Shown here one piece after another: positions 26,980 through 49,832 of a stretch of DNA of 64,000 bases. The notes below the pieces were generated by a model, which worked only from the letters and a program-made list of their open reading frames with translations, was not told the origin of the DNA and did not search any database. Source of the DNA: a virus; IMG/VR virus record IMGVR_UViG_3300005537_000024, positions 1 through 64,000 of that record, one strand, 5' to 3'. Numbering within the stretch: the first letter of the stretch is position 1; each line of letters starts with the position of its first letter. The position numbers were made by a program, and so were the translations under genes.

Positions 26980-27513
26980 ATGAGCACGCCGCCGCTATTG
27001 TCTAAGATGCTTGAGGTCACGGTTGGTGACCTGATCGTGCGGGAAACTCGAATTGTCGAGCCACGGACGAATTGCACCGTTGCGAGAAACTTCCCGAGCC
27101 GAGAGAAGGCCATCGCCGCGGCGCGAGAAATGAATGAGGTCGCGGATTGGGTAGGTGTGCTCAAGACGCGGGCCGAAGGAAAGCGGCCCAACTGCCAAGC
27201 GGAACTCAGACGCATCGCTGAAACGCATGGTGGATCGTTCGCCGAGAACGCCAATGTCGCTACCCACATGCTCTGTGCGGCCGTCGTCGAATCGATCGAA
27301 ACTGCTAAAGCGAGGGAATCGGTGAACAAGGCGAAGGAACCGCGAACCTGCGTCGAGTGCGGCAAGCCGTTCGTTTATCGGCACGTGCTCCAGAAGACCT
27401 GCTCGTCGGAGTGCTCGGCGGCGAACCGCGACAAGGTCATGAAGCGGGCGCGGGATCGGGCGCGCGAGAGGTTGAGGGAGATACGCGCCAAGGCGCAGGC
27501 AAAGCACGGATGA
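26980..27513 (+). CDS. Hypothetical protein with C-terminal Zn ribbon
   Basis: CVECGKPF...KTCSSEC; lower-GC 5' half. Confidence 0.6.
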   Translation: MSTPPLLSKMLEVTVGDLIVRETRIVEPRTNCTVARNFPSREKAIAAAREMNEVADWVGVLKTRAEGKRPNCQAELRRIAETHGGSFAENANVATHMLCAAVVESIETAKARESVNKAKEPRTCVECGKPFVYRHVLQKTCSSECSAANRDKVMKRARDRARERLREIRAKAQAKHG

Positions 27514-29171
27514 CCCTCCCGGCGGTCCGCGTCGACTGGAAAAACCCCGACTACGGCGCGATCATCCGCGTGCGGCTCGAAAACCTCGACCAGATTCGGG
27601 CGCACCCGGAGGACCTGCCGGCGCTCAAGGCATACTACCGCGAGAACCCCTGGGACTTCGTGAGCGACTTCGGATGGACGTTCGAGCCGCGCAACGTCGA
27701 GGTCGGCCTGCCGGCGATGATCCCGTTCGTCCTAATGCCGCGGCAGGTCGAGCTCGCGCGCTGGATGATCGACAAGTGGCGCGCGCGGTCGTCGGGCGCG
27801 GTCGAGAAGGCGCGCGACTGCGGGGCGACGTGGGTCGCGATCTCGCTCTCGTGCACGCTGTGCATATTCAACAGCGGCGTCACGGTCGGCTTCGGCTCCC
27901 GCAAGGCGGAGTACGTCGACAAGCTCGGGACGATGAAGCCCATCCTCCCGAAGGGGCGGATCTTCATGGAGAACCTGCCGGAGGAGTTCCGGGCGGGCTT
28001 CGTGCCGTGGCGCGACGCGCCCTCGATGCGGATCGGCTTCCCGGAGACCGGGTCGCTGATCACGGGCGAGGGCGGCGACGACATCGGCCGCGGCGACCGG
28101 ACCTCGATGTTCATCGTCGACGAGGCGGAGCACCTCGAGCGGCCGGACCTCGTCGAGTTCTCGCTGTCGCGGACGACGAACTGCCGGATCGACATGTCGT
28201 CGGTCAACGGGTCGGCGAACCCGATCGCGCGCAAGATCCTCGAGAAGCGGGTCGACGTGTTCTACTTCGACTGGCGGGACGACCTGCGGAAGGACGACGC
28301 GTGGTACGCGGCGGAGAGCGCGCGGCTCGACCCGGTCGTCGTGGCGCAGGAGATCGACCGCGACCGGTCGGCCTCGGTCTCGGGCATCGTCATCCCGGGC
28401 GCCTGGGTACGCTCGGCGATCGGGTTCCGCGAATGGGCCGGGCTCGGCCCGTCGGGCGAGTGGACGTTCGCGCTCGACGTGGCGGACGAGGGGCGGGACA
28501 AGAACGCCGCGGTGGGCGGGCGGGGCATCGAGATCAGCCTCGCCGAGGAGTGGAGCGGCAAGGGGTCGGATACTTTCGCGACCGTCGAGCGGGCGTTCGC
28601 GATCGCCGAGGAGCACGACTGCCGCCACTGGCGGTACGACGCCGACGGGATGGGCGCGGGGGTCCGCGGGGACGCGCGGGTGATCAACGAGCGCCGGAGG
28701 TCCCAGCGCCTGCCGGAGCACGCGGCCGTCGGTTTCCGGGGCTCGGAGGCCGTCTTCGACCCTGAGGGCGTCGTCGAGGGCACGACGGGCCGCGAGGGCG
28801 ACCCCGGGCGCCTCAACCAGGACTACTTCCTGAACCGGAAGGCGCAGGGCTGGTGGCGGCTCCGCAAGATGTTCCAGCGGACGCATAGGTGGCGGACGGA
28901 GAACGTTCGCTGCGGCGCCGACGAGGTCGTCTCGCTCGACCCGAGGATGCCGAACCTAAGCAAGCTCGTCGCGGAGCTCTCGCAGCCCACGTACGGGCAG
29001 AACATCGCCGGCAAGATGCTCATCAACAAGCGGCCGGACGGCATGCCGTCGCCGAACCTGGCGGACGGGGCGATGATGCGGTTCGCGCCGATCGACGCGC
29101 CCGGCGTCCTGTTCACGCAAGAGCACGTCAAGCAGCTCTACGCGGCGTCCCCGAAGCGGAGGAGGTACTAA
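27510..29171 (+). CDS. terL: Terminase large subunit
   Basis: EKARDCGATW Walker A variant, GRGDR..FIVDEA Walker B, ALDVADEG.D nuclease motif, SPNLAD. Confidence 0.93.
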   Translation: MTLPAVRVDWKNPDYGAIIRVRLENLDQIRAHPEDLPALKAYYRENPWDFVSDFGWTFEPRNVEVGLPAMIPFVLMPRQVELARWMIDKWRARSSGAVEKARDCGATWVAISLSCTLCIFNSGVTVGFGSRKAEYVDKLGTMKPILPKGRIFMENLPEEFRAGFVPWRDAPSMRIGFPETGSLITGEGGDDIGRGDRTSMFIVDEAEHLERPDLVEFSLSRTTNCRIDMSSVNGSANPIARKILEKRVDVFYFDWRDDLRKDDAWYAAESARLDPVVVAQEIDRDRSASVSGIVIPGAWVRSAIGFREWAGLGPSGEWTFALDVADEGRDKNAAVGGRGIEISLAEEWSGKGSDTFATVERAFAIAEEHDCRHWRYDADGMGAGVRGDARVINERRRSQRLPEHAAVGFRGSEAVFDPEGVVEGTTGREGDPGRLNQDYFLNRKAQGWWRLRKMFQRTHRWRTENVRCGADEVVSLDPRMPNLSKLVAELSQPTYGQNIAGKMLINKRPDGMPSPNLADGAMMRFAPIDAPGVLFTQEHVKQLYAASPKRRRY

Positions 29172-30793: not shown

Positions 30794-31056
30794 TGTCGGC
30801 GGAGACGATGCTGCGCGAGGCGCTCGACCCGAAGAACTTCCCCCGGTGGGCGCAGGCGTGCCCGAAGTCGTTCGAGGAGATGCAGAAGTCGATCGCCAGG
30901 GCCGCGGTGATGATGGCGAAGCTCCCGCTCGCCGACAGTACGCGGGCGACCCTGACAATGACGCTCGGCGACGTGGCGGCGTCGTGCTGGGCCGCGGGCC
31001 AGCGGTCGGTCAAGGAGGGCAACCTCGACGTCGACGCCTTGCAGGGGAAGGGCTGA
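30793..31056 (+). CDS. Hypothetical protein
   Basis: TGATG-coupled at both ends. Confidence 0.55.
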   Translation: MSAETMLREALDPKNFPRWAQACPKSFEEMQKSIARAAVMMAKLPLADSTRATLTMTLGDVAASCWAAGQRSVKEGNLDVDALQGKG

Positions 31057-33263
31057 TGGCGAACGGGCACGGGGGCGCCCGCCCTGGCGCGGGGCGGAAG
31101 AAGGGATCGTCGCCGGCGAACGACAACAGGGGACAGCCGGAGAAACCCGCGTCCCCCCCTCAGCGCCTGGCCTCGTTCGAGGCGCTCGCGGCGCTCGTCG
31201 AGGCGAGCAGGGAGCGGGCCAAGACGCGCGAGCGGACGCGCGACTGGTGCCCGTTCAAGATCGCCGAGCACCCGCCGATGGCGATGCCCCGCAAAGAGCT
31301 CACGATGGCGATGGACGACGCCCTTATGGGGAACAACAACTGGGCCGCCGATTCGTGGATGGCCGGCGGCATGCTCTCGAGCGTGGCGTCGGAGGGCCTC
31401 CTGTTCCTCGGCTATCCTTTCCTCTCCGAGCTCGCGCAGCGCGCCGAGTACCGCATCATCTCGGAGACGATCGCGACGGAGCTGACCCGCAAGTGGGTGC
31501 GGTTCAAGGGGAAGGGGGACGCCGACAAGACCGACAAGATCAGCGAGCTGAACGACTTCCTCGACGACCTGAAGCTCCGCGACCGGTTCTGCGACATCGC
31601 CCTCCAAGACGGGGAGTTCGGCCGCTCGCACCTGTTCCTCGACCCCGGCGACGTGAGCGACGACGAGCTCAAGACGCCGATCGGGACGGGGCGCGACCGG
31701 ACGACGAAGGGCAAGCTCGGGACCGCGAAGGGCTGGCTCAAGTCGCTTAGGGTAATCGAGCCGCTATGGGTCTACCCGACGACCTACAACGCGCAGAACC
31801 CCCTCCGCGGCGACTGGTACAACCCGCAGGTCTGGTACGTGATGGGGCGCGAGATCCACCGGTCGCGCATCCCGACGTTCATAGGGCGCCCGGTCCCGGA
31901 CCTCCTCAAGCCCGCCTACTCGTTCGGCGGGCTCTCGCTCTCGCAGATGGCGAAGCCATACGTCGACATCTGGCTCCAGACGCGGGAGAGCGTCGCGGAG
32001 ATCGTCCGCTCGTTCTCGGTGATGGTCCTCGAGACGGACCTCGCCACGCGGCTGATGCCGGGGGGCGGCGGCGCGGCCGACGTGCTCGCGCGCGTCGCGG
32101 CGTTCAACGCGCTGCGCGACAACCAGGGCACGTTCGTCATCAACAAGAACACGGAGGGGTTCCAGAACGTCTCGGCGCCGCTCTCGGGCCTGCACGAGCT
32201 CCAGGCGCAGTCGCAGGAACACGTCGCCTCCGTCGCCCGCATCCCGCTCGTAAAGTATACGGGCATCGAGCCGTCGGGGCTCAACGCCTCGTCGGAGGGG
32301 TCGATCCGGACGTTCTACGACTCGATCGCGGCTTTCCAGCCGAAGCTGTTCGACCCGAACCTCGACTTCGTGATCGACGTGGCCATGATCACGCTCTGGG
32401 GCGAGCGCGACCCCGACATCGTCAAGGAGTACGTCCCGCTCCACTCGCTGACCGAGAAGGAGGAGGCCGAGCTCCGCAAGACGAACGCCGAGACCGCGCA
32501 GATCCATATCGACTCGGGCGTCCTATGGCAGGAGGAGGAGCGGGCGCGCGTCGCGAGCGACCCGCAGGGCCTCTACCCCGGCCTCGACCCCGAGGACGTG
32601 CCGGACCTCAAGGAGGAGGAGGAAGCGGGCCTCGTCCCGCCGGGCGCCGGCAAGGGGCTAGAAGCGGTCCTTGAGGAACCAGGGGAGCGCGGCGGCGAGG
32701 ACGCGGCCATCCTCCCTTTTGCCGAGGACGCTGAGTGGCGGGAAGGGGACCACCCGCGCGACGCGAGCGGCAAGTTCGGGGCCGGGGGCGGGCACGCTGC
32801 GGCAACCGCGTACAAGGAGCACGCCGCCGTCAATGAATGGCTCCGCGGCGAGCGAGACCCGTCGACCGGCTCGGCGAAGGAGAACAAGAAGATCATCGCT
32901 GAAATGGACGAGCTGATCGCGTCGAGCAAGACCGACAAGGCTCAGACGCTCTACCGCGGCTTCGGCGACGCCGACGTGGTGAAAAACGCTAGCGGCAAGG
33001 GCTACGTCCGCGACCCGGCATTCCTCTCGACCTCGACCGATGAGGGCATCGCGCGCGAGTTCGCCGGGTCGGGGTACGTAGCGGCGATCAAGGTCCCGGC
33101 AGGGACGAACGCCTATTCGTTCGGCGACGATGACCCGCAGAAAGAGGTAGTGCTACCGCGCCGGACGCGCCTAAAGATCTCTGGCGCCGACCACCAGAAG
33201 AAGATCCTTCACCTAACGCTGGTCGAGGCCCCCGCGGCGGCCGACGATGAAACGGAAGAATGA
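31056..33263 (+). CDS. Portal protein (DUF1073-type) fused to a C-terminal ADP-ribosyltransferase domain
   Basis: FLGYPFLSELAQRAEY, LKPAYSFGG.SL.Q, IPLVKYTGIEPSGLNASS portal motifs; C-terminal LYRG, FLSTS, QKEVVLPR (R-S-E ART). Confidence 0.9.
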   Translation: MANGHGGARPGAGRKKGSSPANDNRGQPEKPASPPQRLASFEALAALVEASRERAKTRERTRDWCPFKIAEHPPMAMPRKELTMAMDDALMGNNNWAADSWMAGGMLSSVASEGLLFLGYPFLSELAQRAEYRIISETIATELTRKWVRFKGKGDADKTDKISELNDFLDDLKLRDRFCDIALQDGEFGRSHLFLDPGDVSDDELKTPIGTGRDRTTKGKLGTAKGWLKSLRVIEPLWVYPTTYNAQNPLRGDWYNPQVWYVMGREIHRSRIPTFIGRPVPDLLKPAYSFGGLSLSQMAKPYVDIWLQTRESVAEIVRSFSVMVLETDLATRLMPGGGGAADVLARVAAFNALRDNQGTFVINKNTEGFQNVSAPLSGLHELQAQSQEHVASVARIPLVKYTGIEPSGLNASSEGSIRTFYDSIAAFQPKLFDPNLDFVIDVAMITLWGERDPDIVKEYVPLHSLTEKEEAELRKTNAETAQIHIDSGVLWQEEERARVASDPQGLYPGLDPEDVPDLKEEEEAGLVPPGAGKGLEAVLEEPGERGGEDAAILPFAEDAEWREGDHPRDASGKFGAGGGHAAATAYKEHAAVNEWLRGERDPSTGSAKENKKIIAEMDELIASSKTDKAQTLYRGFGDADVVKNASGKGYVRDPAFLSTSTDEGIAREFAGSGYVAAIKVPAGTNAYSFGDDDPQKEVVLPRRTRLKISGADHQKKILHLTLVEAPAAADDETEE

Positions 33264-34044
33264 GCGAACGCTGCGGCCCGTCCGCGCGAACGCGGGGATC
33301 GCCGCGGCCTACAGGCGCCGGATCGTCGCCCTCCTCGACGAGATGGCAGCGTCGTACGAGCACTGGATAGCGGCGCAGTACCGGGCGAAGCCCCCGGCGA
33401 TGGCGCAGGACGCGAGCGCGGCGAAGGAGCTAGAGCGCGAGCTGCGCAAGCTCGGGAAGCGCTGGCAGCGTCGCATCGACGAGGCGGCGCCGAAGCTCGC
33501 GGCGTGGTTCGCCCGGGCGGCGGAACTCCGGTCGGAGACAGCGCTGCGCAAGATCCTCCGGGACGCCGGGATCAGCGTCAAGTTCACGGTCACGAGGGAG
33601 ATGCGCGACGTACTCGACGCGACGGTCGCGCAGAACGTGTCGCTCATCCGCTCGATCCCGGAGCAATACCACACGGAAGTCGAGGGCCTGGTGATGCGCT
33701 CGGTCACGGCGGGGCGCGACCTCGAACAGCTGACCAAGGACCTCCGGAGGCGATACGATATTACGCAGCGCCGAGCAGTGCTGATCGCCAGGACACAAAA
33801 CGGAATGGCAACCGCTGCGATGACGCGGGCTCGACACACCGCAATAGGGATCGAGGAAGCTCTATGGCTACACTCTCATGCGGGGCGCGAGCCGAGGCCG
33901 ACTCACCTGGCCAACGACCGGAAAAAGTACAAAATTGCGGAAGGCTGGTACGATCCTGACCCCAAGGTCCGCCGTCACATTTGGCCTGGGGAATTGATCA
34001 ACTGCCGTTGCGTTCCAAAGCCGATCGTGAAGGGGTTCTCGTGA
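33247..34044 (+). CDS. MuF / SPP1 gp7-like minor head protein
   Basis: NVSLIRSIP, RAVLIARTQ, W.HS..PRPTH, PGELINCRC. Confidence 0.92.
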   Translation: MKRKNERTLRPVRANAGIAAAYRRRIVALLDEMAASYEHWIAAQYRAKPPAMAQDASAAKELERELRKLGKRWQRRIDEAAPKLAAWFARAAELRSETALRKILRDAGISVKFTVTREMRDVLDATVAQNVSLIRSIPEQYHTEVEGLVMRSVTAGRDLEQLTKDLRRRYDITQRRAVLIARTQNGMATAAMTRARHTAIGIEEALWLHSHAGREPRPTHLANDRKKYKIAEGWYDPDPKVRRHIWPGELINCRCVPKPIVKGFS

Positions 34045-34702: not shown

Positions 34703-35086
34703 ATGAAGAAGCTCGTCCTGACCGTGCCGATCCTCGCGGCCGTCGCCCTCACGTTCTTCGCCGTAGTGGGGCCGCCAGGCGCGCGGGCGCAGAACGGCCT
34801 CCGGCAGGTCCCGCTCGGGTTCTGCCCGCTGTCCTCGATGACCTCCTCGACGGGGCTCGCGAGCTGCTCGGGGGGCATCCCGGCCGGGACGACGTACGCG
34901 GTCATCTGCGCGTACACGGCCGGCATAGTCTGGCGGGACGACGGCACGGCTCCGACCGGGACGCCCGGGAGCGGCGGGCAGGGGCTCGGCGCGGGCTCGT
35001 GCATCCCGTACAACGGCACGTTCACGGCGATCCGCTTCATCCAGCAGGCCACCGGGGCGCTCCTCGGGGTCACATTCTACCAATAG
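34703..35086 (+). CDS. Signal-peptide beta-sandwich protein, paralogous to C-terminus of 61869-62363
   Basis: MKK-hydrophobic-ARA|Q; 4 Cys; WRDDGTAPT...IRFIQ..LGVTFY. Confidence 0.8.
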   Translation: MKKLVLTVPILAAVALTFFAVVGPPGARAQNGLRQVPLGFCPLSSMTSSTGLASCSGGIPAGTTYAVICAYTAGIVWRDDGTAPTGTPGSGGQGLGAGSCIPYNGTFTAIRFIQQATGALLGVTFYQ

Positions 35087-35096
35087 GTCCCCGCAC

Positions 35097-38000
35097 ATGA
35101 CTCGTGGAAAACGTTGGCTGGCGCTCCTCGGCCTCCTCGGCCTCGCGGCGGTCTCGCTCGCGCAGGTGCCGAACGGCGGCCCGATGGTTCCGTCCGTCCC
35201 GTTCCCGCTCGCGGCGTCGAACGAGCTTGCGGACTGCGCGCCGTCGACCAGCTGCAGGAGCAACATCGGCCTCGATCCCTCGGTCTCGACCACGGACGGG
35301 TGGGGGGCGGCCGGCAACGCGATCTCGGCGACGTTCGTCGCCTGCTACACGAACAACGGCTCGTTCTGCGGCGGCCAGGCGTTCAACATCGTCAGCTTCC
35401 CGACGACCCAGAACGGCTCGCAGTCGACCACCGTGACGGGAACGTTGGGCGGGAGCGTGATCACGCTTCAGTCTGGATGGTGCCGGTCGGAGATGGCCGG
35501 GTCGCCGATCTACATCCCCGGGGCCGGCCTCGGCGGGGCGCCGCTGTTCACAAAGATCGTCTCGTGCATCAGCACGCAGCCGTCGGTCGCGGCGTCGATC
35601 GAGACGCCTATGTCCGTCGTCCCGAGCGGGACGGTGACGGTCTCTTACGGGGCGCAGGCGCTCAACGGCGGAACGGGCTGGCAGCAGACGGACGTCGGGA
35701 AGGGGATCTACCTCGGCAACTCGGCGGGCGGCCAGCTCGGCGGCACGTTCACGATCACCGCGGTCACTTCTGGCCTGAATATAACGCTCAGCTCAAACGT
35801 TTCGTCGATCAACAACAGCACGGCCTCGAACTTCGTGTGGGGGACCGACGACAGCACCGCGGTTAGCAACGCCTGCGCCGCAGCCGCGGCGATCCCGTCG
35901 CGGCAGCTCCAGGTCCCGCTGAAGCACTTCGTCCCATCGCTCTCGGCGATCTGCTACAACGTCCGCCTGCGCGGCTCCGGTGCGCTCATGAGCACGGAGT
36001 TCGGCCTTCCGGTATCGAGCGGCGCGGGCGCCGGCATCGTGCAGGAGTTCGTCGTCCCGTACGACGCGCCGCCGGCGCAGGGGCCGCGCCGCGAGGTGAT
36101 CGCCGCGCGCGACCTCAACCAGTGCAGGCTCGCCGGCCCCAACCCGATCATCGTCCAGTCGGGCGACAGCCTCGAGCAGCTCGTGCCGAACGAGCTGTCC
36201 GGCCTCGGGACCTACCCGGGATCGTTCAAGGCGGCGTTCCTGCGGCAGAACCAGCGGACGCTCTGGCCGACCTTCCGCAACGCCGCGGCCGGCGGGGCGC
36301 AGTACACCAACTTCGACGGCAACCCGAACCAGGCGACCGGCGACGTCCTCACGTCGACGTCGACGCCGTGGCTCACGCAGATCGCGGCCGTCAACCCGTG
36401 CCTCGTGATCAACGGCATGGGGAACAACGACGGCGCTGGGCTCTCGATCCCGGCCCTCGTCGACAGCTACGTGAAGATGACGACGCCGGGCGCGGTCTTC
36501 GCGACGCCGCCGGACTTCATCTACGTAACGCACCACCCCTACAGCCGCATCAACAATAGCAACATCGACGCGTGGGAAGGTGACGAGTACGCCTCCGGCT
36601 ACATCTGCTCGTTCGCCCACGTCATGGGGCGTCCGTGCATAGACGGCGCGCGCGAGGGCGAGAAGCACCTATTCGGGATCGACCCCGGCGCGATGCGGAT
36701 GACCCGCCGGTACGACGTCCCCTACAACACCAACAACATGGCCCTGCCGTACTCGCTCTCCGGGTCCGTCTACGGCCACTCGGCGCAGTTCTTCAAGAGC
36801 GGGCAGAACGGCGCGACGTTCTGGGCGAACTTCACTGGCAACGGCGGCGTGACGGACCCGCGCGGCAACTTCATCGCGTTCCGGGTCGGCAAGAACTCCG
36901 ACAACGTCGTGTGGCTGTTCTACAACGGGACGAACATCGGCTACGAGTGCGACCCGTCGGCGGGCCTTCCCGGCCTCGGCTGCGACGGCCCGAACGGCCA
37001 GCCCCCCGTCGTCCCTTCGCTCCTGAGCAACGTCACGGTCGCCAACACGGGCGGCGGGGGCGTCGCCCAGGTCTCGACCTCGACCGCGGTCTTGCAGCCT
37101 TGCACGGTCGGCGGGACGGTCGCGATCCCGGGCGCAGGCGCGGTGCTGACGCCGCCCGGTTATACCAGCTACACGGCGCCGCTCGTCACGACGGTCACGG
37201 CCTGCAATTCGACCTCCCTCATGACCCTCGCGGTCGCCGCGACGACGACCTACGCGGCGCAGTCCGGCTTCGTGATGTTCGGGAACCCGGTCACCTACTC
37301 CAACGTGACCGACGCCTCGAACTGCACGAACGAGCCCTTCGGCTTCGAGGTCAACTTCGACACGCTCAGGGTCTGGTTCTGCTCGACGAACCAGATCGTC
37401 TACGAAGGCCCGGTGATGCGGCCGCGGGGGCTCTACCAGCCGTCGATCTTCACCGGCGGCAACCGGCCCTCGTTTACGGTCGGGGTCGACATTAACGGCG
37501 GCACGACGTTCCAGACGCTTCGCCCCAACCCGAGCCAGATCACGTTCAACGACGCCGAGGTTAGCGGCCCCGCGAGCAACGGCCCTCTGTCGAACCAGAC
37601 CTACTCCGGCCCCGACGGCGGCGACGGCAACAACCACAACACGATGCGGTTCGGGACGCGGGTCATCGCGCCCCTGTTCGACGCGCAGGACCTTTCGATC
37701 GCGCCCGCGTATGTCGGGCCGGCGAACAAGCCGGCGCTCGGCCTCGGAATCCCGCAGGCGCGGACGATGGCGCTGTTCGGGGATAGCATTTTCCAGGGCA
37801 ACGACACGATCAACCTCAGCAACTCGTCGTGCTCGTCTGGCAACTGCGCCGCCACCCTCGACGGCGGCTACGGGACGTTCGCTAGCGCGTATTCCGGCTA
37901 CAGGGTGCTGCGGGTCCCGAACACGGGCAACTGCTCGCTAAACGGGTCGACCTCAGCGATCATGGTCAACTACGTGAGCTGCGTCCTGGCGCTCAGGCCC

Positions 38001-39032
38001 GACGTGGTCATGATGGAGATCGGCGGGAACGACGCGGCCGGGAGCACGGCCTGCGCCACGGTCACGGCCACCAACCGGCAGATCTACAAGGCGTTCATGC
38101 AGGCTGGGATCGCCGTGATCAAGTACGGCGTCTACCCGCGCGGCGGCGGGAGCGCGTTCACGACCGCGCAGGCGAACTTGGCCCAGTGCTACAATCTGGA
38201 GGACAAGCGGTTCGCCGAGGGGGTCGGGAACAACGGGTTCTACTTCGTCGACCTCGACCCGCTGTACGTCTCCCCCGGCGGCGGGACGACGTGGACGATC
38301 AACACGAACTGCCTCAAGGACCTCTTCCACCCCGGGACCTCCTGCGCCTCGGCGGGCGGGTACGCGGGCGCGCAGATCATCAACCAACTTTTCCCGCCCG
38401 GCCGCCAGCCGATCTTCACGAACGCGGATGTCTACGACGGGACGAATAACCCGGGCGGCAACCTCCTCCCGAACGGGATCTTGACCGGCTCGGGCGGGTC
38501 GGCGCCGACTAGCGGGTGCACGGGTTCGACCGTCAACAATTCGAGCCTGACCGGCAACAACCTCATCGGAACGACCTGCGCGGGGTCGACGCAGACGCTC
38601 GCCGACGGCCGGGGGGCGCAGATCATCACGGTCGGCGGGACGGGCTCCGGCTCGAACGGTTTCCTGTCCTGGGCCATGAACTCTGCGACCCCGTCGAGCG
38701 TCGCGATCGGCGACGTGCTCGAGGCCGAGTGCTGGCTAAACCTCGGCGCCAATAGCAACATCGCCGCCGTCGACGTGCAGATGCAGACGATCGAAAGCTC
38801 GACCCTTTTCGTTCAGCACGGCGGGTCGGTCTCGACGCTCACGCTGCCGATGCCGTCGGCGGGCTACGCGACCGGGACGTGGACGCCGTTCCGGACGCCG
38901 CGGCGCACGATGACTGCGATCCCCACGGTCGCCGGCATCAACATCGGCTTCAGCTACGTCTCTCCCCTCGCCACCACGGTTTCCGGCACGCTCGGCATCA
39001 CGAGCTGCTCGCTCAGAAAGGTCCTGTCGTGA
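35097..39032 (+). CDS. Signal-peptide tailspike-like protein with two SGNH/GDSL esterase domains
   Basis: SLA|Q signal; 30 Cys counted; SGDSL..GNND and FGDSI..GGND..DLFHP; tailspike motif GWGAAGNA...GTDDSTAV. Confidence 0.85.
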   Translation: MTRGKRWLALLGLLGLAAVSLAQVPNGGPMVPSVPFPLAASNELADCAPSTSCRSNIGLDPSVSTTDGWGAAGNAISATFVACYTNNGSFCGGQAFNIVSFPTTQNGSQSTTVTGTLGGSVITLQSGWCRSEMAGSPIYIPGAGLGGAPLFTKIVSCISTQPSVAASIETPMSVVPSGTVTVSYGAQALNGGTGWQQTDVGKGIYLGNSAGGQLGGTFTITAVTSGLNITLSSNVSSINNSTASNFVWGTDDSTAVSNACAAAAAIPSRQLQVPLKHFVPSLSAICYNVRLRGSGALMSTEFGLPVSSGAGAGIVQEFVVPYDAPPAQGPRREVIAARDLNQCRLAGPNPIIVQSGDSLEQLVPNELSGLGTYPGSFKAAFLRQNQRTLWPTFRNAAAGGAQYTNFDGNPNQATGDVLTSTSTPWLTQIAAVNPCLVINGMGNNDGAGLSIPALVDSYVKMTTPGAVFATPPDFIYVTHHPYSRINNSNIDAWEGDEYASGYICSFAHVMGRPCIDGAREGEKHLFGIDPGAMRMTRRYDVPYNTNNMALPYSLSGSVYGHSAQFFKSGQNGATFWANFTGNGGVTDPRGNFIAFRVGKNSDNVVWLFYNGTNIGYECDPSAGLPGLGCDGPNGQPPVVPSLLSNVTVANTGGGGVAQVSTSTAVLQPCTVGGTVAIPGAGAVLTPPGYTSYTAPLVTTVTACNSTSLMTLAVAATTTYAAQSGFVMFGNPVTYSNVTDASNCTNEPFGFEVNFDTLRVWFCSTNQIVYEGPVMRPRGLYQPSIFTGGNRPSFTVGVDINGGTTFQTLRPNPSQITFNDAEVSGPASNGPLSNQTYSGPDGGDGNNHNTMRFGTRVIAPLFDAQDLSIAPAYVGPANKPALGLGIPQARTMALFGDSIFQGNDTINLSNSSCSSGNCAATLDGGYGTFASAYSGYRVLRVPNTGNCSLNGSTSAIMVNYVSCVLALRPDVVMMEIGGNDAAGSTACATVTATNRQIYKAFMQAGIAVIKYGVYPRGGGSAFTTAQANLAQCYNLEDKRFAEGVGNNGFYFVDLDPLYVSPGGGTTWTINTNCLKDLFHPGTSCASAGGYAGAQIINQLFPPGRQPIFTNADVYDGTNNPGGNLLPNGILTGSGGSAPTSGCTGSTVNNSSLTGNNLIGTTCAGSTQTLADGRGAQIITVGGTGSGSNGFLSWAMNSATPSSVAIGDVLEAECWLNLGANSNIAAVDVQMQTIESSTLFVQHGGSVSTLTLPMPSAGYATGTWTPFRTPRRTMTAIPTVAGINIGFSYVSPLATTVSGTLGITSCSLRKVLS

Positions 39033-39586
39033 AGCGACACCTCACCGCCCTCCTCGTCGGGACGGCTCTCGCGCTCGCGCCGGCGATCGCCGCGGCGCAG
39101 AACATGGGGGCGTCGGGCTACTACGGCGGCCCCCCCGGCGCCGGCCAGCAGCTCGGGGCGCAGAGCAACGCGCAGGCGGTCGCCGGGAACGTCGGCGAGC
39201 CGCTCTCGAACTCGCTCGCCTCCGGCTCGGCGATCACGTACTCGACCGGGACGGCGGCGAACATCACGAACATCACGAGCCTGACGCCCGGCCGCTGGGA
39301 GGTGTGGGGGACCTGCGCCTTCACGTTCGGCGGGACGACAGTGGTAACGCAGGAGAGCTGCGGGATCAGCACGACGTCGGCGACGCAGCCCGGCCTCGCG
39401 TCGGGGGCGGAGGGGCAGCTGGCCACGGGCGCGGGGTTCACGGGAGGCGCCGACAACACCGTGTTCAGCGGCGTCACGCCGATCGCCGTCTCCGCGCCGA
39501 CGGTCGTCTACCTCGTCGGGACGTGCGCGTTCACGACGTCGACGTGCAAGGGCTACGGGCAGATCCAGGCGGTGCGGAGGCCGTGA
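39029..39586 (+). CDS. Signal-peptide tail-fibre-tip-like protein
   Basis: GTG start; AAA|Q signal; AGNVGE...ASGSAI...TSLTPGRWEVWG fibre-tip motif; 4 Cys. Confidence 0.75.
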   Translation: MKRHLTALLVGTALALAPAIAAAQNMGASGYYGGPPGAGQQLGAQSNAQAVAGNVGEPLSNSLASGSAITYSTGTAANITNITSLTPGRWEVWGTCAFTFGGTTVVTQESCGISTTSATQPGLASGAEGQLATGAGFTGGADNTVFSGVTPIAVSAPTVVYLVGTCAFTTSTCKGYGQIQAVRRP

Positions 39587-40914
39587 CCAAGCGGCTCGCC
39601 CTCGCGCTCGCCCTCCTCCTCGCCGCGCCCGCAGGCGCGCAGACGATCGGGGACCTCGTCGCCGTCGGCCCTTCTCAGCTCCAGACGAGCGACGCGGCGT
39701 CGGCCTGCGCCGCGCAGGGCTATTGCAACGCCCCGCTCGGGCTCAACTTCACCGGCTCGATCACCTACGGGAGCGGGGCTGGTTCTCCGAGCGGCCCCGC
39801 GAACGCGCTCATATGGGCCGGCGGGAACGGCGCGTACGTGCCCGCGACCGGCGTCTGCGCGCTGACGACCGGCCAGCTCTGCGCCTACGTGAGCTTCGCG
39901 TTCCTCGACCAGGTCGACGCGTCGGCGAACTTCAACGGCCTCGCCGCCTTCGTGATCCAGGACGTCGTGCAGGCGCCGGCCAAGGGGGGGCGCGGCGTCT
40001 TCAACACCTACTTCACCTACCAGGGTTCGGCCGATACGAACCAGCAGTACGGCACCGGCTCCTCGTACGTGAAGGCGATCGCCAACAACGGCGGTACGAG
40101 CCTGGCCGCGGCCGGTGCTCTGTTCGGCGGCAACCCGTTCGTCGACTTTCAGCCGGGCGCGACGTTCTGGGCGCAGGGGATCGGCATCGAGACGGACATG
40201 CGCATCATGAACGGCGCGCAGGTCCGTGAGATGATCTTCCACCAATACGTGCACGAGTTCAACTACACGCAGCCCCCGCAGTTCGCGGTCGGGCTTTCGG
40301 TCAACGCGCAGACGGCCTGGAAGGGGACCGGCTTCATAAGCGGGACGACGTTCGACGCGGTCACGTCGACCTTCGGGCAGCTGCTCGTCGGGCACACCCT
40401 CCAGGGGACGGGGATCGCGCCCGGCACGGTCATAACGGCCTACCAGGGCGGCTCGGGGGGGACCGGGACCTACACGGTCAACATCAACCAGAACGTCGGG
40501 AACATCAATTCGACGGTCGCGACGTGGGGCAACCCGGTCGGCCTCGACGCGATGCTGCAAGACGGCTCGTTCGCCGGCGTCTCCGAGATCAGCGCGACCG
40601 GCGGCGTCTTCCGCTGCTTCAACACGCTGAACTCGAACCCGAGCGGCGGGGCCGGCGGCTGCGGGACGATCGGCTACGGCCTCGACTTCGGCAACTACAT
40701 CGCCGTGACCGGCAACCTCCTAAACGGCCCGCAGGGCAACGGGCGGATCGACGGGAACTTCAACGTCGTCGCCGCCACGCTGACCCTGAACAGCTCCGCC
40801 TCGTTCACGGCCACGAAGACGAACTGCGGCAACCTCGCGAGCTCGACGGGATGCCTGATCCTGAAGGACAACAACGGCAATTCGGTCTACGCGCCGCTCT
40901 ACGGCACCCTCTGA
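39583..40914 (+). CDS. Signal-peptide fibre/spike-like protein
   Basis: GTG start; AGA|Q signal; 8 Cys; one copy of the GGxGTY virion repeat domain. Confidence 0.78.
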   Translation: MTKRLALALALLLAAPAGAQTIGDLVAVGPSQLQTSDAASACAAQGYCNAPLGLNFTGSITYGSGAGSPSGPANALIWAGGNGAYVPATGVCALTTGQLCAYVSFAFLDQVDASANFNGLAAFVIQDVVQAPAKGGRGVFNTYFTYQGSADTNQQYGTGSSYVKAIANNGGTSLAAAGALFGGNPFVDFQPGATFWAQGIGIETDMRIMNGAQVREMIFHQYVHEFNYTQPPQFAVGLSVNAQTAWKGTGFISGTTFDAVTSTFGQLLVGHTLQGTGIAPGTVITAYQGGSGGTGTYTVNINQNVGNINSTVATWGNPVGLDAMLQDGSFAGVSEISATGGVFRCFNTLNSNPSGGAGGCGTIGYGLDFGNYIAVTGNLLNGPQGNGRIDGNFNVVAATLTLNSSASFTATKTNCGNLASSTGCLILKDNNGNSVYAPLYGTL

Positions 40915-40926
40915 ACGGAGACCCTC

Positions 40927-41382
40927 GTGAAACGACTCCTGCTCGCCGCCTTTATCCTCGCCCTCGCGTCCAACCCCGCGGCCGCGGCGGAGACGCCTCC
41001 CCCTCCCGCGCTGCACGTCGTCGACATGGCCGCCGTCCTCCGCGGCATCGACGGCAAGCCGATCAAGGACGCGTTCCAGCAGACGGCGGCGGATCAGGCG
41101 TGCGAGAAGTGCGACGACCTAACCCTCGCCGCGGCCGTGACGCGCGTCCTCCTCATTCGCACGAAGGACGACGCGAACATGGACCCGCTCCAGAGCTGGG
41201 CGCTCCAGGACCTCGCCCGCCGGGTCAACGCGCCCGGGCCGGTCACGCTCAACGCGCGGGAACGCGCGGTGATCGTCGAGCGCCTGCTCAAGGTGTACGG
41301 GGGGCTCAACATGCAGTCGATCGTGCTCGGCGCTGCGATCCCGCTGGTCGACCCCGAGCGCCGCGTCCCGGAGCTCAAATGA
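40927..41382 (+). CDS. Signal-peptide tail-fibre-chaperone-like protein
   Basis: AAA|A signal; IDGKPIKD..LTL...LARRV...VTL..ERAVI pattern of proteins that follow phage fibres; CxxC. Confidence 0.65.
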   Translation: MKRLLLAAFILALASNPAAAAETPPPPALHVVDMAAVLRGIDGKPIKDAFQQTAADQACEKCDDLTLAAAVTRVLLIRTKDDANMDPLQSWALQDLARRVNAPGPVTLNARERAVIVERLLKVYGGLNMQSIVLGAAIPLVDPERRVPELK

Positions 41383-41607: not shown

Positions 41608-44220
41608 ATGCCCCTCTCGCTCGACCCCAACTCGGGAATCCCGGCGGGCCTGCGCAAGCGGGCCTTCGACGACGTGTCGGGCGTCAAGGGCCACGCGGCG
41701 GGCGTCCTCTACGTCGCCCCGGACGGCGACGTGCTCCTTTGCCGGCGGTCGCCGGGCGAGGAAAACTACGGGGGGTGGTGGAGCCTCCCGGGCGGCGGCG
41801 CAGAGGACGGCGAGACGCCGGAGGAGGCGGCCAAGCGCGAGGTGGGCGAGGAGCTCGGGCGGCACGGGGTATTTGGCCTGCGGCTCCTCGACCGGCGGGT
41901 GACCCCGACCGGCAAGGCTTTCCACACTTTCGTGAAGACCACCGAGGAGAAGTTCCAGCCGACGCTCAACGGCGAGCACGTCGGTTACGCGTGGTTCCCG
42001 CTCGACGGGCTCCCGGAGAAGACCCACCCCGCGGTGCGGCGGACGCTCGACGAGCGGCTCGGCATCGGGGCGGCCGACATGACGCCGGAGGACTGGAACG
42101 GGCTGCGCGAGGGGTTCCTGAAGTGGACGGCCGAGGAGGAGGCGGAGGGCGAGCACGCGCTCGACGACGCCGACCCGCTCGACTGGGGCGCGGACCTCGA
42201 CGACCTGCCGGTCGACAGCTCGCACGACGGGCCGTGGATGAGCGTCATGGCGCGCGACGGCTCGCGCATGTACCGGAACAAGAACCTCCCGGGCTCGGCG
42301 GAGATCGCCGGGAAGACGGTCGACGTGGACGACATGCTCAAGGCGCACGAGGCGCCGGAGTGGGTCGAGATCAAGGCGCTCCTCGCCGCGTTCGAGAAGG
42401 AGCACGGCCGCGAGCCTGACGAGAAGGAGCGGGTCGCCCTCTACAACGAGGCCCACCGCAAGAAGGGCGTCCCGGGCGAGCGCGCCCACGCGAAGGCGCA
42501 GGGCGTCGACTGGGGCGCCTGGAACGCCTGGTGCCGCGGCGAGGAAGAGAAGCTCGAGAAGGGGCCGTTCACGAACGAGCCGACGGACGCCGACGTGCGC
42601 CCGATCCCGCACGACCACGGCGAGCTCGAGGTGACGACCGATTCGGCCCTCGTGATCGCGCTCGACCGCGAGTCGGTCCGGCAGCTCGACCAGGACGGCC
42701 GGCTCCGGGTCGCGATCACGGCGATCTCGAAGGCCAACATCTGCCCCTACCGCGGCGGGGAGATCCCGCGGTGGCGGGATCTCGGCCTCGACCAGAACAA
42801 GATCTACAACCTGCTGCGGGACCCGGACGAGCTCGCGAAGGCGGCGCCGACGTTCAACGGCATACAGTTGCTGAGGATTCACAAGCCGGTCAACGCGACG
42901 GCGCCGCAGGTCGAGGAGGTCGTCGGGACGACCGGGACGGAGGCGGAGTTCGTCTACCCGTACCTGCGCAACAGCCTCGTCGTGTGGACGCAGGAGGGGA
43001 TCGACTTCATCGAGTCGGAGGAGAAGAAGGAGCTGAGCTCCGGCTATCACTACGACGCGGACATGACACCGGGAACTTTCGATGGTAAGCAGTACGACGG
43101 CGTCATGAGGAACCTGCGCGGCAACCACGTCGCGCTCGTCGAGCAGGGAAGGGCGGGACCCGACGTGGTCGTCGCCGATAGCATGGAGGGCCTGATGGCC
43201 AACGCGAAGCCGACTCGTCTCGCCGCCGCCGCCCTGAGGCTGACCGCGCGGGGGATCAACCCGCTGCTCGCGCACGACGCAAAAGTCGAGCTGATGCCGT
43301 TTTTCGCGGACCTCAACACGAAGAACTTCAAGGAGCGCAAGCCGAAGGTCCTCGACGGCCTCAAGGCGGCGCTCAAGGGGAAGACGATCGCGAAGGACGC
43401 CGACATCTCCCACGTCGCGCTCGCGCTCGACGAGGTCGAGAAGGTCGGGGAGAAGGACAAGGCGGCCGACGAATCAGTCTCCGAGCCGCAGCACAAGGCG
43501 ATGGAGGCGGCGGCCCACGGGCACTCGAACCTCGGCATCCCCAAGTCGGTGGGCGAGGAGTTCTCCGACGCCGACAAGGGCAAGAAGTTCGACGAGCTCC
43601 CGGCGTTCCTGAAAGAGAAGGGGATGTCGGAGGACGACGTCGAGCACGTCATGGGGATGTTTCCGCAGGCGGACAAGTCGGCGGCCGGCGACGTGCACCA
43701 CCACCACCACTACGGCCACGACGAGTCGGAGACCGACGAGGAGAAGAAGGCCCGCGAGAAGAAGGCCGAGGACTCGGCCATGATCGAGGGCGGCTCCCAC
43801 ATGCACCACCACCACGCGGCCGACTCCAAGGGAGCAAAGGACAAGGCGATGGTCACGAAGGACGAGATGGACGCGACCCTCAAGGCCGCGCTCGCGGCGA
43901 ACGCCAAGGAGATCCGCGCGGCGGAGAAGGACATCCGGATCGCGATGGACGAGGTCCGCCCGTACGTCGGCGACCTGCCGGCGACGCTCGGGCTCGATAG
44001 CGGCTCGGCCGTGCGGCGCCACGCGCTGAAGGTCCTTCAGGTCGAGGGGGCGGACGCGATCCACGAGTCGGCGCTCTCGACGATCCTCAAGATGCAGCCG
44101 AAGGCCGGCGCGCGGGAGCCCGACCCCGACCGCCGCCGGACGTCGCTCGGCATGGACGCCGCGACGGTCAAGGGCTTCAACGAGCGGTTCCCCGACGCGG
44201 ACCGGATCAAGCTGGCCTGA
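41608..44220 (+). CDS. Nudix + unknown domain + DUF2213 prohead protease/scaffold fusion
   Basis: Perfect Nudix box GGAEDGETPEEAAKREVGEELG; DUF2213 motifs SKANICPYRG.EI, ELSSGY, NHVALVEQGRAG; acidic scaffold tail. Confidence 0.9.
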   Translation: MPLSLDPNSGIPAGLRKRAFDDVSGVKGHAAGVLYVAPDGDVLLCRRSPGEENYGGWWSLPGGGAEDGETPEEAAKREVGEELGRHGVFGLRLLDRRVTPTGKAFHTFVKTTEEKFQPTLNGEHVGYAWFPLDGLPEKTHPAVRRTLDERLGIGAADMTPEDWNGLREGFLKWTAEEEAEGEHALDDADPLDWGADLDDLPVDSSHDGPWMSVMARDGSRMYRNKNLPGSAEIAGKTVDVDDMLKAHEAPEWVEIKALLAAFEKEHGREPDEKERVALYNEAHRKKGVPGERAHAKAQGVDWGAWNAWCRGEEEKLEKGPFTNEPTDADVRPIPHDHGELEVTTDSALVIALDRESVRQLDQDGRLRVAITAISKANICPYRGGEIPRWRDLGLDQNKIYNLLRDPDELAKAAPTFNGIQLLRIHKPVNATAPQVEEVVGTTGTEAEFVYPYLRNSLVVWTQEGIDFIESEEKKELSSGYHYDADMTPGTFDGKQYDGVMRNLRGNHVALVEQGRAGPDVVVADSMEGLMANAKPTRLAAAALRLTARGINPLLAHDAKVELMPFFADLNTKNFKERKPKVLDGLKAALKGKTIAKDADISHVALALDEVEKVGEKDKAADESVSEPQHKAMEAAAHGHSNLGIPKSVGEEFSDADKGKKFDELPAFLKEKGMSEDDVEHVMGMFPQADKSAAGDVHHHHHYGHDESETDEEKKAREKKAEDSAMIEGGSHMHHHHAADSKGAKDKAMVTKDEMDATLKAALAANAKEIRAAEKDIRIAMDEVRPYVGDLPATLGLDSGSAVRRHALKVLQVEGADAIHESALSTILKMQPKAGAREPDPDRRRTSLGMDAATVKGFNERFPDADRIKLA

Positions 44221-45299: not shown

Positions 45300-46409
45300 A
45301 TGAACCGCCAAGAAGCTATCGCCGCCTACCAGGCGGACCGGGCGATGCTCCAGCAGAAGGGCATCATCCTCCCCGGCGTGAAGATGTACCTCCCCGACGA
45401 GTGGAAGCACGACTTCCCGCTCGCGATGGACCAGCTCGCGATGGACGCCCCGGCGGGGACGCTGTCGACGGACCCGAACTCGGCGATCCCGGCGATCCTC
45501 ACGACGACGATCGACCCGGAGGTCATCAAGGCGATCTTCTCGCCGCTCGAGTTCCCGCAGATCCTCGGCGAGCGGAAGGCCGGCGACTGGGTCGAGGACG
45601 TGCGGATGTTCCCGATCGTGGAGAGCACCGGCGAGGTCTCGTCCTACGGGGACTTCAACAATAGCGGCCGGGCCGGCGTGAACATCAACTGGCCGCAGTT
45701 CCAGTCGTACCTCTTCCAGACCATCGTCAAGTACGGCGAGCGCGAGATCGCGCGGGCGGGCTTGGCGAAGATCTCCTACGTGTCGGAGCTCGGGCTCTCG
45801 GCGGCGGACCTGCTCAACCGGTTCCAGAACCTGACCTACGCGTTCGGGGTCCTCAACCTCCAGAACTACGGGATCATCAACAACCCGTTCCTGTCAGCCT
45901 ACCTCACGCCGGCGACGAAGGCGGCGGGCGGGACGGCGTGGTTCAACGGCAACACGCCGAACGCGACCGCGAACGAGGTCTACAACGACATCATCGCGCT
46001 CGTGACCAAGCTGGTCGCGCAGACGAACGGCGCGCTGAACGTCAAGTCGCCGATGACGCTCGCCATGTCGCCGCAGTCCGAGATCGCGATGACGTTCGCG
46101 AACTCGTTCGGCGTGTACGTCTCGGCGCTGCTCGAGAAGGGCTACCCGAACATCAAGGTCAAGACGGCGCCGCAGTACGGGACGCAGTCGACCACGAACC
46201 CGCAGGGCTACTCGACGGCCGGGAACGTGATGCAGCTCATCGCCGACAAGATCCAAGGCCAGACCGTCGCCTATTGCGCCTTCAACGAGAAGCTCCGCGC
46301 GCACAAGATCGTGCCGGAGCTCTCGGCGTGGATGCAGAAGCACACGTCGGGCACGTGGGGAACGATCCTGCGGAGCCCGGTCGCCGTGACGGGGATGCTC
46401 GGCATCTGA
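45300..46409 (+). CDS. Major capsid protein (DUF2184-type)
   Basis: AMDA..NSAIP..LTT.IDP, GE.K.GDW, GEVSSYGD, EKLRAH, SGTWG; AGGAG RBS. Confidence 0.92.
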   Translation: MNRQEAIAAYQADRAMLQQKGIILPGVKMYLPDEWKHDFPLAMDQLAMDAPAGTLSTDPNSAIPAILTTTIDPEVIKAIFSPLEFPQILGERKAGDWVEDVRMFPIVESTGEVSSYGDFNNSGRAGVNINWPQFQSYLFQTIVKYGEREIARAGLAKISYVSELGLSAADLLNRFQNLTYAFGVLNLQNYGIINNPFLSAYLTPATKAAGGTAWFNGNTPNATANEVYNDIIALVTKLVAQTNGALNVKSPMTLAMSPQSEIAMTFANSFGVYVSALLEKGYPNIKVKTAPQYGTQSTTNPQGYSTAGNVMQLIADKIQGQTVAYCAFNEKLRAHKIVPELSAWMQKHTSGTWGTILRSPVAVTGMLGI

Positions 46410-48921: not shown

Positions 48922-49368
48922 GTGGCGACGATCAGCGGCGGCAAGGTCTTCGAGGCGAAGATCCGCGAGCTCGCCGCCAGGGTGTCGCGTCCGGCGCTCC
49001 TGCGGGTCGGTTTCCTCGAGAACGCCCGCTACCCGGACGGCAAGCCGGTCGCGATGATCGCGGCGATCCACAACTGGGGCGCCCCGTCGCGCGGAATCCC
49101 GCCGCGGCCGTTCTTCTCGAACATGATCAAGGACAAGCAGGGGGAGTGGCCTGCGGCGATCGCCGGGCTCCTCCGCGACAACGACTGGGACGCGGAGCGG
49201 GCGCTCGACATCGCCGGCGCGGAGATCGCCGGGCAGCTCCGGCAGGCGATCACCGACTTCTATGGGGTGCCGCTCAAACCTGCTACGATCGCCCGGAAGG
49301 GATTCGACAAGCAGCTGATCGACACCGCCCACATGCTCCAGAGCGTCGACCACGAGGTGCGAACGTGA
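48922..49368 (+). CDS. Neck/tail-completion protein
   Basis: RVGFLE..YPDG..VA.IA..HNWG..IPPRPF, TIARKG.DK.LIDT. Confidence 0.85.
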   Translation: MATISGGKVFEAKIRELAARVSRPALLRVGFLENARYPDGKPVAMIAAIHNWGAPSRGIPPRPFFSNMIKDKQGEWPAAIAGLLRDNDWDAERALDIAGAEIAGQLRQAITDFYGVPLKPATIARKGFDKQLIDTAHMLQSVDHEVRT

Positions 49369-49832
49369 CCAGCGGAGTCGTCTATCGAATCGCGGTCCGA
49401 GGTGCTGAGGTCAGGTATTACATCGGGCAGGCGGTCGACTTCGCCAAAAGGAAAAAGAGGCACCTTAACGCTCTTAGAGGCGGCTATCATCGAAACGTCG
49501 TTCTTCAGAGGCTATTCGACAAGTACGGCGAGGACGCCTTTGCGTTCGAGGTTCTACTAGTCTGTTCCCGTAAGATGCTTAGCTTCTACGAGCAGATCAT
49601 CTTGGACAGCTACGGGGACAAGGCCGTGAACATCCGCAAGCTTTGTGTAGATAGCCAATTGGGCATAAAGCTCTCTCCGGAGTGTCGCGCGAAACTGTCG
49701 TCCCAGCGTATCGGAACTAAGCGATCTCTCGGCTATCGACATACTTTAGAAACCAAGGCTCACCTTGCGCAAAGGATGCGTGCTATTAGAGCCGAGAGAT
49801 TCTGGAACCACAAAGGCGAGGTGAAAACATGA
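49365..49832 (+). CDS. GIY-YIG homing endonuclease with NUMOD3-like repeats
   Basis: SGVVYRI...YYIGQA..R..H; HTLETKAHL; markedly lower GC. Confidence 0.85.
   Translation: MTSGVVYRIAVRGAEVRYYIGQAVDFAKRKKRHLNALRGGYHRNVVLQRLFDKYGEDAFAFEVLLVCSRKMLSFYEQIILDSYGDKAVNIRKLCVDSQLGIKLSPECRAKLSSQRIGTKRSLGYRHTLETKAHLAQRMRAIRAERFWNHKGEVKT

Follow-up and report, generated by a model that had tools for sequence, protein, structure and literature searches.

The window examined here, a 64,000-nucleotide stretch of virus DNA, corresponds to bases 1-64000 of the 72,561-base IMG/VR record IMGVR_UViG_3300005537_000024. Between the genes for a MuF-type head morphogenesis protein and the prohead protease, it carries five consecutive genes on the + strand (34703-41382; g1 to g5), all of which begin with predicted Sec-type signal peptides, as the initial annotation had proposed. 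Predicted leaders are likewise present on two further genes which it had named, g6 in the neck region (49829) and g7 in the baseplate region (61869). We strongly infer that the products of these genes undergo Sec export and oxidative folding in the periplasm. On balance, we are also inclined to think that the five cassette proteins work outside the cell, either docked on the phage particle or released beside it. Gene content and order mark the five genes as an accessory cassette, specific to the lineage, which occupies a variable slot downstream of MuF and upstream of the protease.

Leaders and cysteines of the seven genes

The seven genes and their predicted leaders are as follows (aa, amino acids; GC3, GC content at third codon positions; the arrow marks the predicted cleavage site).

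34703-35086, + strand: g1, 127 aa, leader 1-29 (ARA↓Q), four Cys (41, 55, 69, 100)
35097-39032, + strand: g2, 1311 aa, leader 1-22 (SLA↓Q), 30 Cys
39029-39586, + strand: g3, 185 aa, GTG start, leader 1-23 (AAA↓Q), four Cys (96, 111, 166, 173)
39583-40914, + strand: g4, 443 aa, GTG start, leader 1-19 (AGA↓Q), eight Cys in four local pairs
40927-41382, + strand: g5, 151 aa, leader 1-20 (AAA↓A), two Cys as CxxC (59, 62)
49829-50473, + strand: g6, 214 aa, leader 1-26 (LAA↓N), four Cys, GC3 0.97 in frame
61869-62363, + strand: g7, 164 aa, leader 1-21 (AFA↓Q), two Cys, paralogue of g1

Each of these N-termini has a basic n-region followed by a hydrophobic core and ends in a small-x-small cleavage site. 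Leaders were called by a rule of our own, which asks for a positive n-region, an h-region of about 10-15 hydrophobic residues and small residues at positions -3 and -1. The pattern is clear in g1-g5 and g7 and weaker in g6, whose n-region has a net charge of +1 and a Glu at position 3. The rule was positive for 14 of the 78 called open reading frames (ORFs), two of these 14 being probably spurious antisense ORFs. The capsid, sheath, tube, tape measure and baseplate J proteins are not among the flagged ORFs, in line with the earlier statement that core components of the particle have no signal peptide. Applied to ORFs of at least 100 aa in all frames, true genes included, the rule has a background of 13 in 263 (4.9%), so that five flagged genes in a row are not a matter of chance. 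Export by the Tat route was also considered and was rejected, as the n-regions of the leaders are without a twin-arginine pair.

The upstream starts of the leader-bearing genes are supported by several kinds of feature. The GTG starts of g3 and g4 overlap the preceding stop codon as GTGA, and g7 begins in an ATGA overlap with the stop codon of the gp25-like baseplate wedge gene, with baseplate J directly downstream. Shine-Dalgarno (SD)-like sites lie upstream of g4 (GGAGG), g5 (GGAG) and g6 (GAGGTG), and the first 25 codons have a GC3 of 0.80-0.96, which is coding-like for this genome. In homologues of g2, g4, g1/g7 and of both tail fibres that are encoded beyond the window, the leader has been retained with a changed sequence and with the same type of cleavage site. 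On such comparisons of sequence, the N-termini behave as genuine, selected Sec signal peptides would, and we consider this conclusion supported.

The Cys counts that had been reported for g1-g7 (4, 30, 4, 8, 2, 4 and 2) were reproduced; all of them are even, and most of the residues stand in sequence-local pairs. After predicted processing, the number of free Cys is even in all 12 leader-bearing proteins of the genome, as against 13 of the 28 leaderless late proteins, and g1-g7 contain 1.4-4.1 Cys per 100 aa versus 0.67 in the leaderless late set. These counts support the view that enrichment of Cys and even Cys numbers are confined to the leader-bearing set.

Tail fibres beyond the window

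The last 8.5 kb of the genome encode further leader-bearing proteins, among them two tail fibres which stand next to a leaderless endolysin:

genome 65575-66852: canonical baseplate fibre, 425 aa, 12 Cys, with leader
genome 66855-67997: second fibre-like protein, with leader
genome 68000-68827: endolysin with PG_binding_1, without leader

Also leader-bearing in this part are a lipoprotein (LSGC lipobox), a PF13505 beta-barrel protein and a 231-aa membrane protein. Any lipoprotein or outer-membrane beta-barrel has to be exported, and the two proteins can thus be used as internal positive controls for the type of leader.

The baseplate fibre gene follows baseplate J and DUF2612, and its product contains the Collar domain PF07484 (8.2e-15) and matches phrog_12796 (3.9e-23) with residues 21-403 over profile positions 1-378. 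Position 1 of this profile is fibre residue 21, directly after the predicted cleavage site. The best matches in cultured phages (221 records) begin at fibre residue 21-23, with 41-53% identity over residues 21-152; the fibres of PE067, Orisa01, Bcep1 and others start at this point and are leaderless, as are those annotated in Burkholderia phage PE067 and Acetobacter phage phiAO1. The leaderless fibres of PHROG 12796 (PE067, phiE131, Bcep1, Orisa01 and phiAO1, from phages of Burkholderia, Pseudomonas and Acetobacter) thus resemble the fibre described here in the N-terminal domain, in the gene order J, DUF2612, fibre and in PF07484, but they differ from it in starting right after what is the cleavage site here and in having Gly and Val/Ile where this clade has C57 and C78. 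No leader-bearing relatives were found among the INPHARED matches listed for cultured phages. As far as the alignment allows one to say, the leader is an addition made exactly in front of the ancestral N-terminus. With a leader placed before the N-terminus of a canonical fibre, an exported virion appendage is hard to avoid for the baseplate fibre; this comparison concerns the 65575-66852 protein and not g1-g5. The second fibre matches only two uncultured records, outside its N-terminus.

A search for phages whose fibre genes carry signal peptides had been suggested in the initial annotation, and such genes were indeed found. HMMER with fibre residues 1-170 returned 4457 representatives at E <=0.001, and among the best 150, which were examined, 58 have a leader. 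Of these 58, 55 have Ala and three have Gly at position -1, 53 have Ala at position -3, and 56 carry a net positive charge over their first eight residues. A Cys pair at columns 57 and 78 is present in 46 of the 58 and in none of the 92 leaderless representatives, which have Gly and Val/Ile/Thr at the two columns. The mature Cys count is even in 48 of the 58 versus 37 of the 92, and there are 1.66 versus 0.60 Cys per 100 aa. Taken as raw counts, leader and Cys pair are associated with a Fisher p of 9e-28. A FastTree phylogeny of the fibre domain (151 rows, none dropped; Cys columns 57, 78 and 132 masked) offered only two supported contrasts, and we thus rejected repeated co-evolution and treat the link as a clade-level association.

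Leader-bearing fibres come from metagenomes, several of them on contigs of 68-75 kb, and 31 IMG/VR loci were collected. The related record G001 has such a fibre in the same J-DUF2612-fibre order, and a prophage of the isolate Bradyrhizobium oropedii Pear76 (locus L015) encodes J, DUF2612, a fibre with a leader and a second fibre with a leader. One fibre of the leader clade was seen on the 5-kb contig CAZVYV010000240.1 (locus L014), which is binned to a metagenome-assembled genome of Terracidiphilus (Acidobacteriota); binning of such short contigs is unreliable, and we draw no conclusion on the host from it.

It might be assumed that each of these genes gives two products, an exported form from the upstream start, which serves as a decoy or in exclusion, and a leaderless form from an internal start, which builds the particle. 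In-frame ATG or GTG codons do occur just past the leader, after the cleavage sites, at codon 24 of g2, codon 26 of g3 and codon 21 of the baseplate fibre, and Met likewise stands at +1 in the fibre of the Bradyrhizobium prophage. However, residue +1 is Met in only 17 of the 58 leader-bearing fibres (the remainder being 27 Leu, 7 Glu, 4 Ile, 2 Ala and 1 Thr), so that a conserved internal start of the fibre is unlikely, and no SD-like sequence was seen before the internal ATG of the fibre. Moreover, the first in-frame internal start comes not before codon 86 in g4, codon 57 in g6 and codon 73 in the second fibre, and a reducing cytoplasm would offer little use for conserved Cys pairs. Dual products of this sort appear improbable to us. 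Unless there is a leaderless isoform, the baseplate fibre would apparently have to dock once it has been exported.

A more radical doubt is that the N-termini are not export signals at all, either because the true starts lie downstream or because these segments are uncleaved anchors or assembly tags of cytoplasmic proteins. The home-made nature of the rule and the weak n-region of g6 would suit this idea. It is opposed by the GTGA overlaps, the SD sites and the GC3 of the leader codons, by the persistence of leaders in diverged homologues despite sequence change, and by the low background of the rule. In the leader-bearing fibre relatives, furthermore, residue -1 is always Ala or Gly (58 of 58) and 56 have a net positive n-region. 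Leader and Cys content also go together. We consider this explanation very improbable.

The cassette and its genomic setting

Six related records (G001 and G003-G007) have terminase, portal, MuF, protease, sheath and baseplate J in common with this genome, at 42-62% identity. The gap between MuF and protease measures 0.6-1.7 kb in these relatives versus 7.6 kb here; it holds unrelated small ORFs in G001, G003, G004 and G007, and no ORF that passed the filter in G005 and G006. Neither g2, g3, g4, g5 nor g6 was found in the six records. It is this variable slot, together with the absence of the cluster from six syntenic relatives, that marks the cluster as an accessory cassette. With blastn, the cassette region had no match among 50,697 phage records. 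In another metagenomic contig (L067), a g2-like gene adjoins a portal of a different family, which indicates that the module moves among phages.

The largest product, g2, is composed of a conserved Cys-rich body reaching to about residue 870, an SGNH esterase (893-1079) and a beta-sandwich (about 1140-1311). The esterase is recognised by PF13472 (GDSL_2; 43.6 bits versus a cut-off of 32.9), and phrog_6102 matches g2 at 1.2e-34. In alignment A5 of the SGNH blocks (GDS, GxND and DxxH), G16, D17, N99, D100, D196 and H199 are invariant, and Ser follows GD in eight of the nine rows. A structure model of residues 880-1311 (pLDDT 74, pTM 0.65) has an SGNH fold and then a beta-sandwich. Its matches in the PDB comprise the acetyl-mannan esterase 6hh9/6hfz, sialate O-acetylesterases and carbohydrate-binding modules, as well as the phage tail-fibre structures 4qnl, 9d81, 9d84 and 9lna, with a target TM of 0.6-0.8 against sialate O-acetylesterases and GDSL proteins; the BFVD matches are phage esterases, minor tail and tail fibre proteins. 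Going by the model, g2 is likely a glycan O-acetyl esterase with a carbohydrate-binding beta-sandwich, a module common on phage tail fibres.

The last 432 residues of g2 also occur as stand-alone proteins of about 460 aa, and six of the seven full-length homologues of this kind have a leader and 8-11 Cys. The only leaderless full-length one, the metagenomic P0185, has a single Cys and Ile in place of the Ser of GDS; it may represent a form that stays in the cytoplasm and is possibly inactive. For the body (the first ~870 residues), three homologues with 58-62% identity were found, and 15 Cys are invariant among them. Two of these, P0022 and P0024, have leaders of their own which differ from that of g2, and P0023 begins inside its leader. 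The motifs GDSL (356-359) and GxGNNDG (440-446) are invariant in all four sequences of the body; the region around them (about 350-530), a candidate second SGNH-like core, has no Pfam match at E 0.1 and no clear DxxH. No relative was retrieved from viral, genome or metagenome contigs in a locus search with A1, an alignment of g2, the A1 profile had 0 matches to PDB sequences at E <=1, and tblastn of g2 against cultured phages gave only six distant 'lipase' or hypothetical matches of 24-29% identity.

The product of g4 matches phrog_38233 'tail fiber protein' (1e-9) and phrog_21413 (3.4e-7). Its residues ~250-315 form a module of about 60 aa (PHROGs 21413 and 38233) which is common to several virion proteins of this phage, namely a head protein (50478-51083), the protein upstream of the sheath (51225-52529), the sheath and baseplate J. 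The same module was also noted in unrelated phage proteins with PF11134 or PF12708. One close homologue of g4 was found among 5.8 billion clusters (P0004, 79% identical), and in it the leader sequence has diverged while the AGA↓Q end is kept. A locus search with g4 returned only the ~60-aa module, in one IMG/VR contig, and the ESM Atlas scores (0.81-0.84) are below the meaningful level.

As regards the smaller proteins, the C-terminal ~70-aa domain of g1 is paralogous to g7 (BLASTP E 1e-10, 38% over 69 aa). In G001 this domain is found in a 201-aa protein that is encoded upstream of the sheath gene and has a leader ending in ARA↓Q, and matches to g1 were found in G003-G005. The g6 gene lies 3' of the Neck1 gene and of a homing-endonuclease-like ORF. 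The g5 protein has a weak match to phrog_658 (E 0.0077), and its nearest ESM Atlas clusters are small viral proteins with a score of 0.90, which is a lead only. The idea that g5 is a thioredoxin-fold oxidoreductase, as its CxxC might suggest, was rejected, there being no supporting family match in Pfam, PHROG or NCBIfam. In these three collections, g1 and g3 have no match at all, and a search of ten proteins against NCBIfam gave nothing meaningful; tblastn found no match to g1 or g5 among cultured phages. Fibre or spike motifs had initially been ascribed to the leader-bearing genes as a group. This description fits g2, by its esterase fold, and g4, by its module, and it does not extend to g1, g3, g5, g6 and g7, which have no tail-family match in the same collections.

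The surrounding genes give the following picture.

27357-29171: large terminase
30846-33263: portal (phrog_146, 1.1e-92)
33247-34044: MuF-type head morphogenesis protein (phrog_324, 4.9e-75)
41608-44220: prohead protease (phrog_2229, 1.6e-113)
about 45300-46409: major head protein
48922-49368: Neck1
52599-54569: sheath
55927-57795: tape measure

The tape measure gene is followed by a baseplate hub, a gp25-like wedge and baseplate J (from 62374). By this gene content, the genome is that of a contractile-tailed, myovirus-like phage. Since an identical coding sequence is found at both ends of the 72,561-base record, this represents a complete genome, either circular or circularly permuted. Its GC content is about 68%, and the phage is that of a high-GC diderm host, probably a Bradyrhizobium-like alphaproteobacterium. 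The outer-membrane beta-barrel protein (genome 70277-71077; PF13505, 1.4e-10) follows the lysis region, and in G001 a leader-bearing ORF of 231 aa, similar in length to the beta-barrel gene product, was noticed by eye. The beta-barrel protein may be an accessory of the host envelope and may point to an alphaproteobacterial host.

Several other features of the genome were noted in passing. The prohead protease has a Nudix-like N-terminal part (phrog_1198, 4.8e-17), and the C-terminal part of the portal weakly matches an ADP-ribosylase family (phrog_832, 5.5e-6). An ORF on the + strand between Neck1 and g6 (window 49370-49832) has, by eye, the look of a GIY-YIG-type homing endonuclease, and its GC3 of 0.57 (frame 49146-49832) is far below that of its neighbours. 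Between baseplate J and DUF2612 (genome 64250-64901), the downstream part of a long frame resembles, again by eye, an HNH/AP2-type homing endonuclease. In the baseplate region (window 60751-61401, + strand), a 216-aa protein with nine Cys, no leader and no PHROG match may be a metal-binding spike tip.

Export, docking and the site of action

If the leaders work as predicted, the five cassette products would be synthesised late, each with a cleavable Sec (type I) signal peptide, would pass the inner membrane unfolded and would be cut after the A-x-A site, with disulfides forming in the oxidising periplasm in a Dsb-dependent manner. Their exit would take place at lysis, when holin, leaderless endolysin and spanin-type proteins merge periplasm and cytoplasm, and the exported proteins would meet the cytoplasm-built particles once the compartments are joined. 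As the endolysin has no leader, a hole-forming holin is to be expected, and holins of this type make large holes. As to likely roles, g4 contributes the ~60-aa surface module that virion proteins of this phage have, and g1 is a copy of the small baseplate-operon protein g7. The pattern across the whole phage would then be that proteins directed to the host surface (the cassette, g6, g7 and both fibres) are exported, the core of the particle being cytoplasmic.

The initial annotation had proposed that these receptor-binding or decorating parts are exported, oxidatively folded and added to particles at lysis. The first half of this proposal is supported, since the leaders look selected and the Cys residues are even in number and enriched, whereas for the cassette five a place in the virion goes further than these data. 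A broader version of the proposal may be put forward as well. It envisages a two-compartment particle, the core of which is built in the cytoplasm, while all host-surface parts (the baseplate fibres, the add-ons of neck and baseplate and the swappable esterase/adhesin cassette) are Sec-exported, disulfide-bonded and docked at holin opening; this would apply to the phage and to its large, uncultured clade, with g5 as a periplasmic assembly helper. We hold it to be possible, although we would sooner doubt than assert it in this full form.

A number of observations weigh against the preferred reading of the cassette. The cassette is located in the head module, not in the tail module, and is absent from the six relatives; family and cultured-phage searches did not tie g1, g3 or g5 to a virion family; and family searches found no recognisable particle-anchor domain in the cassette proteins. 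The structure model of g4, from a two-row alignment, has a pLDDT of 29.3 and no usable fold. Bodies like that of g2 and esterase modules exist as separate secreted proteins, which fits free enzymes as well as spikes. To these points must be added that the leaders were called by our rule and not by SignalP, that internal in-frame starts are available just past some of the leaders, as listed above, and that the two independent leader/Cys-pair contrasts on supported branches of the fibre tree give a sign test p of 0.5.

On the other hand, the cassette might act on the infected cell, as the initial annotation had offered by way of alternative, and never join the particle. Its products would then be periplasmic esterase and binding proteins that remove or cover acetylated glycans of the cell surface (nascent O-antigen, exopolysaccharide or O-acetylated peptidoglycan), with the effect that superinfecting phages and progeny are not bound by the dying cell or its debris, or that lysis is aided. 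It is in keeping with this idea that g2 contains a complete SGNH esterase with a carbohydrate-binding-type beta-sandwich, and that an accessory cassette in a slot with unrelated small genes in relatives is a typical host-interaction add-on. PHROGs, too, files the esterase family of g2 under 'moron, auxiliary metabolic gene and host takeover', and both O-antigen acetylation and peptidoglycan O-acetyl turnover occur in the periplasm. Nevertheless, the genes are translationally coupled within the late structural operon, g4 bears a module common to virion proteins, and g1 is paralogous to a gene of the baseplate operon. Moreover, the same pattern of leader and Cys is found on canonical fibres, which cannot be mere envelope modifiers. 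We thus regard an action confined to the infected cell as unlikely, though by no means negligible, and continue with the reading in which the exported proteins serve outside the cell, on the particle or beside it.

Parts of this proposal have parallels in known systems. In the Ff filamentous phages, pIII and pVIII have cleavable signal peptides and pIII is disulfide-bonded in the periplasm; these phages assemble at the envelope and are extruded without lysis. The phage described here is unlike them in that the core of its particle (capsid, sheath, tube and baseplate) is leaderless and in that it has a lysis cassette. Glycan enzymes that act as free proteins are known from soluble phage depolymerases, which are released at lysis, and fibreless T4 particles accept fibres in vitro, so that docking on finished particles is possible. 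Depolymerases and T4 fibres are nevertheless made and folded in the cytoplasm, with no export step, unlike what is proposed here. In the known phage SGNH esterases, the enzyme is part of a fibre that is made in the cytoplasm and binds the particle through an N-terminal domain. The C-terminal part of g2 has a predicted fold in common with those of G7C gp63.1 (4qnl), Moo19 gp82 (9d81) and B2 (9d84) of Shigella phages and SFP21A gp09 (9lna), and with the two-domain acetyl-mannan esterase 6hh9/6hfz; for its 432 residues, the Foldseek probability against these entries is 1.00, at 11-13% identity and a whole-chain TM of 0.2-0.38. What sets g2 apart from these esterases is its leader, its 30 Cys and an unrelated N-terminal body of 870 aa.

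Searches of the full-text literature yielded no description of Sec-exported tail fibres in tailed phages, and passages of PMC3556154, PMC3517404, PMC13001222 and PMC1079782 have no bearing on exported tail fibres. What is known, then, are the families of fibre and esterase; what appears to be new, on the evidence of their coding sequences, is the proposed export route. Assembly of tailed-phage particles is held to take place entirely in the cytoplasm. Should the proposal be true for the fibres and spikes of a widespread clade of soil phages, there would be a second compartment of virion assembly and a late docking step tied to lysis, and the Sec and Dsb functions of the host would be determinants of phage infectivity. 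Disulfide-bonded receptor-binding proteins might then account for the durability of particles in soil, and annotation pipelines that set aside proteins with leaders as non-structural would misinterpret such genomes. The question is open to ordinary methods, as the Bradyrhizobium oropedii isolate has a prophage with leader-bearing fibres.

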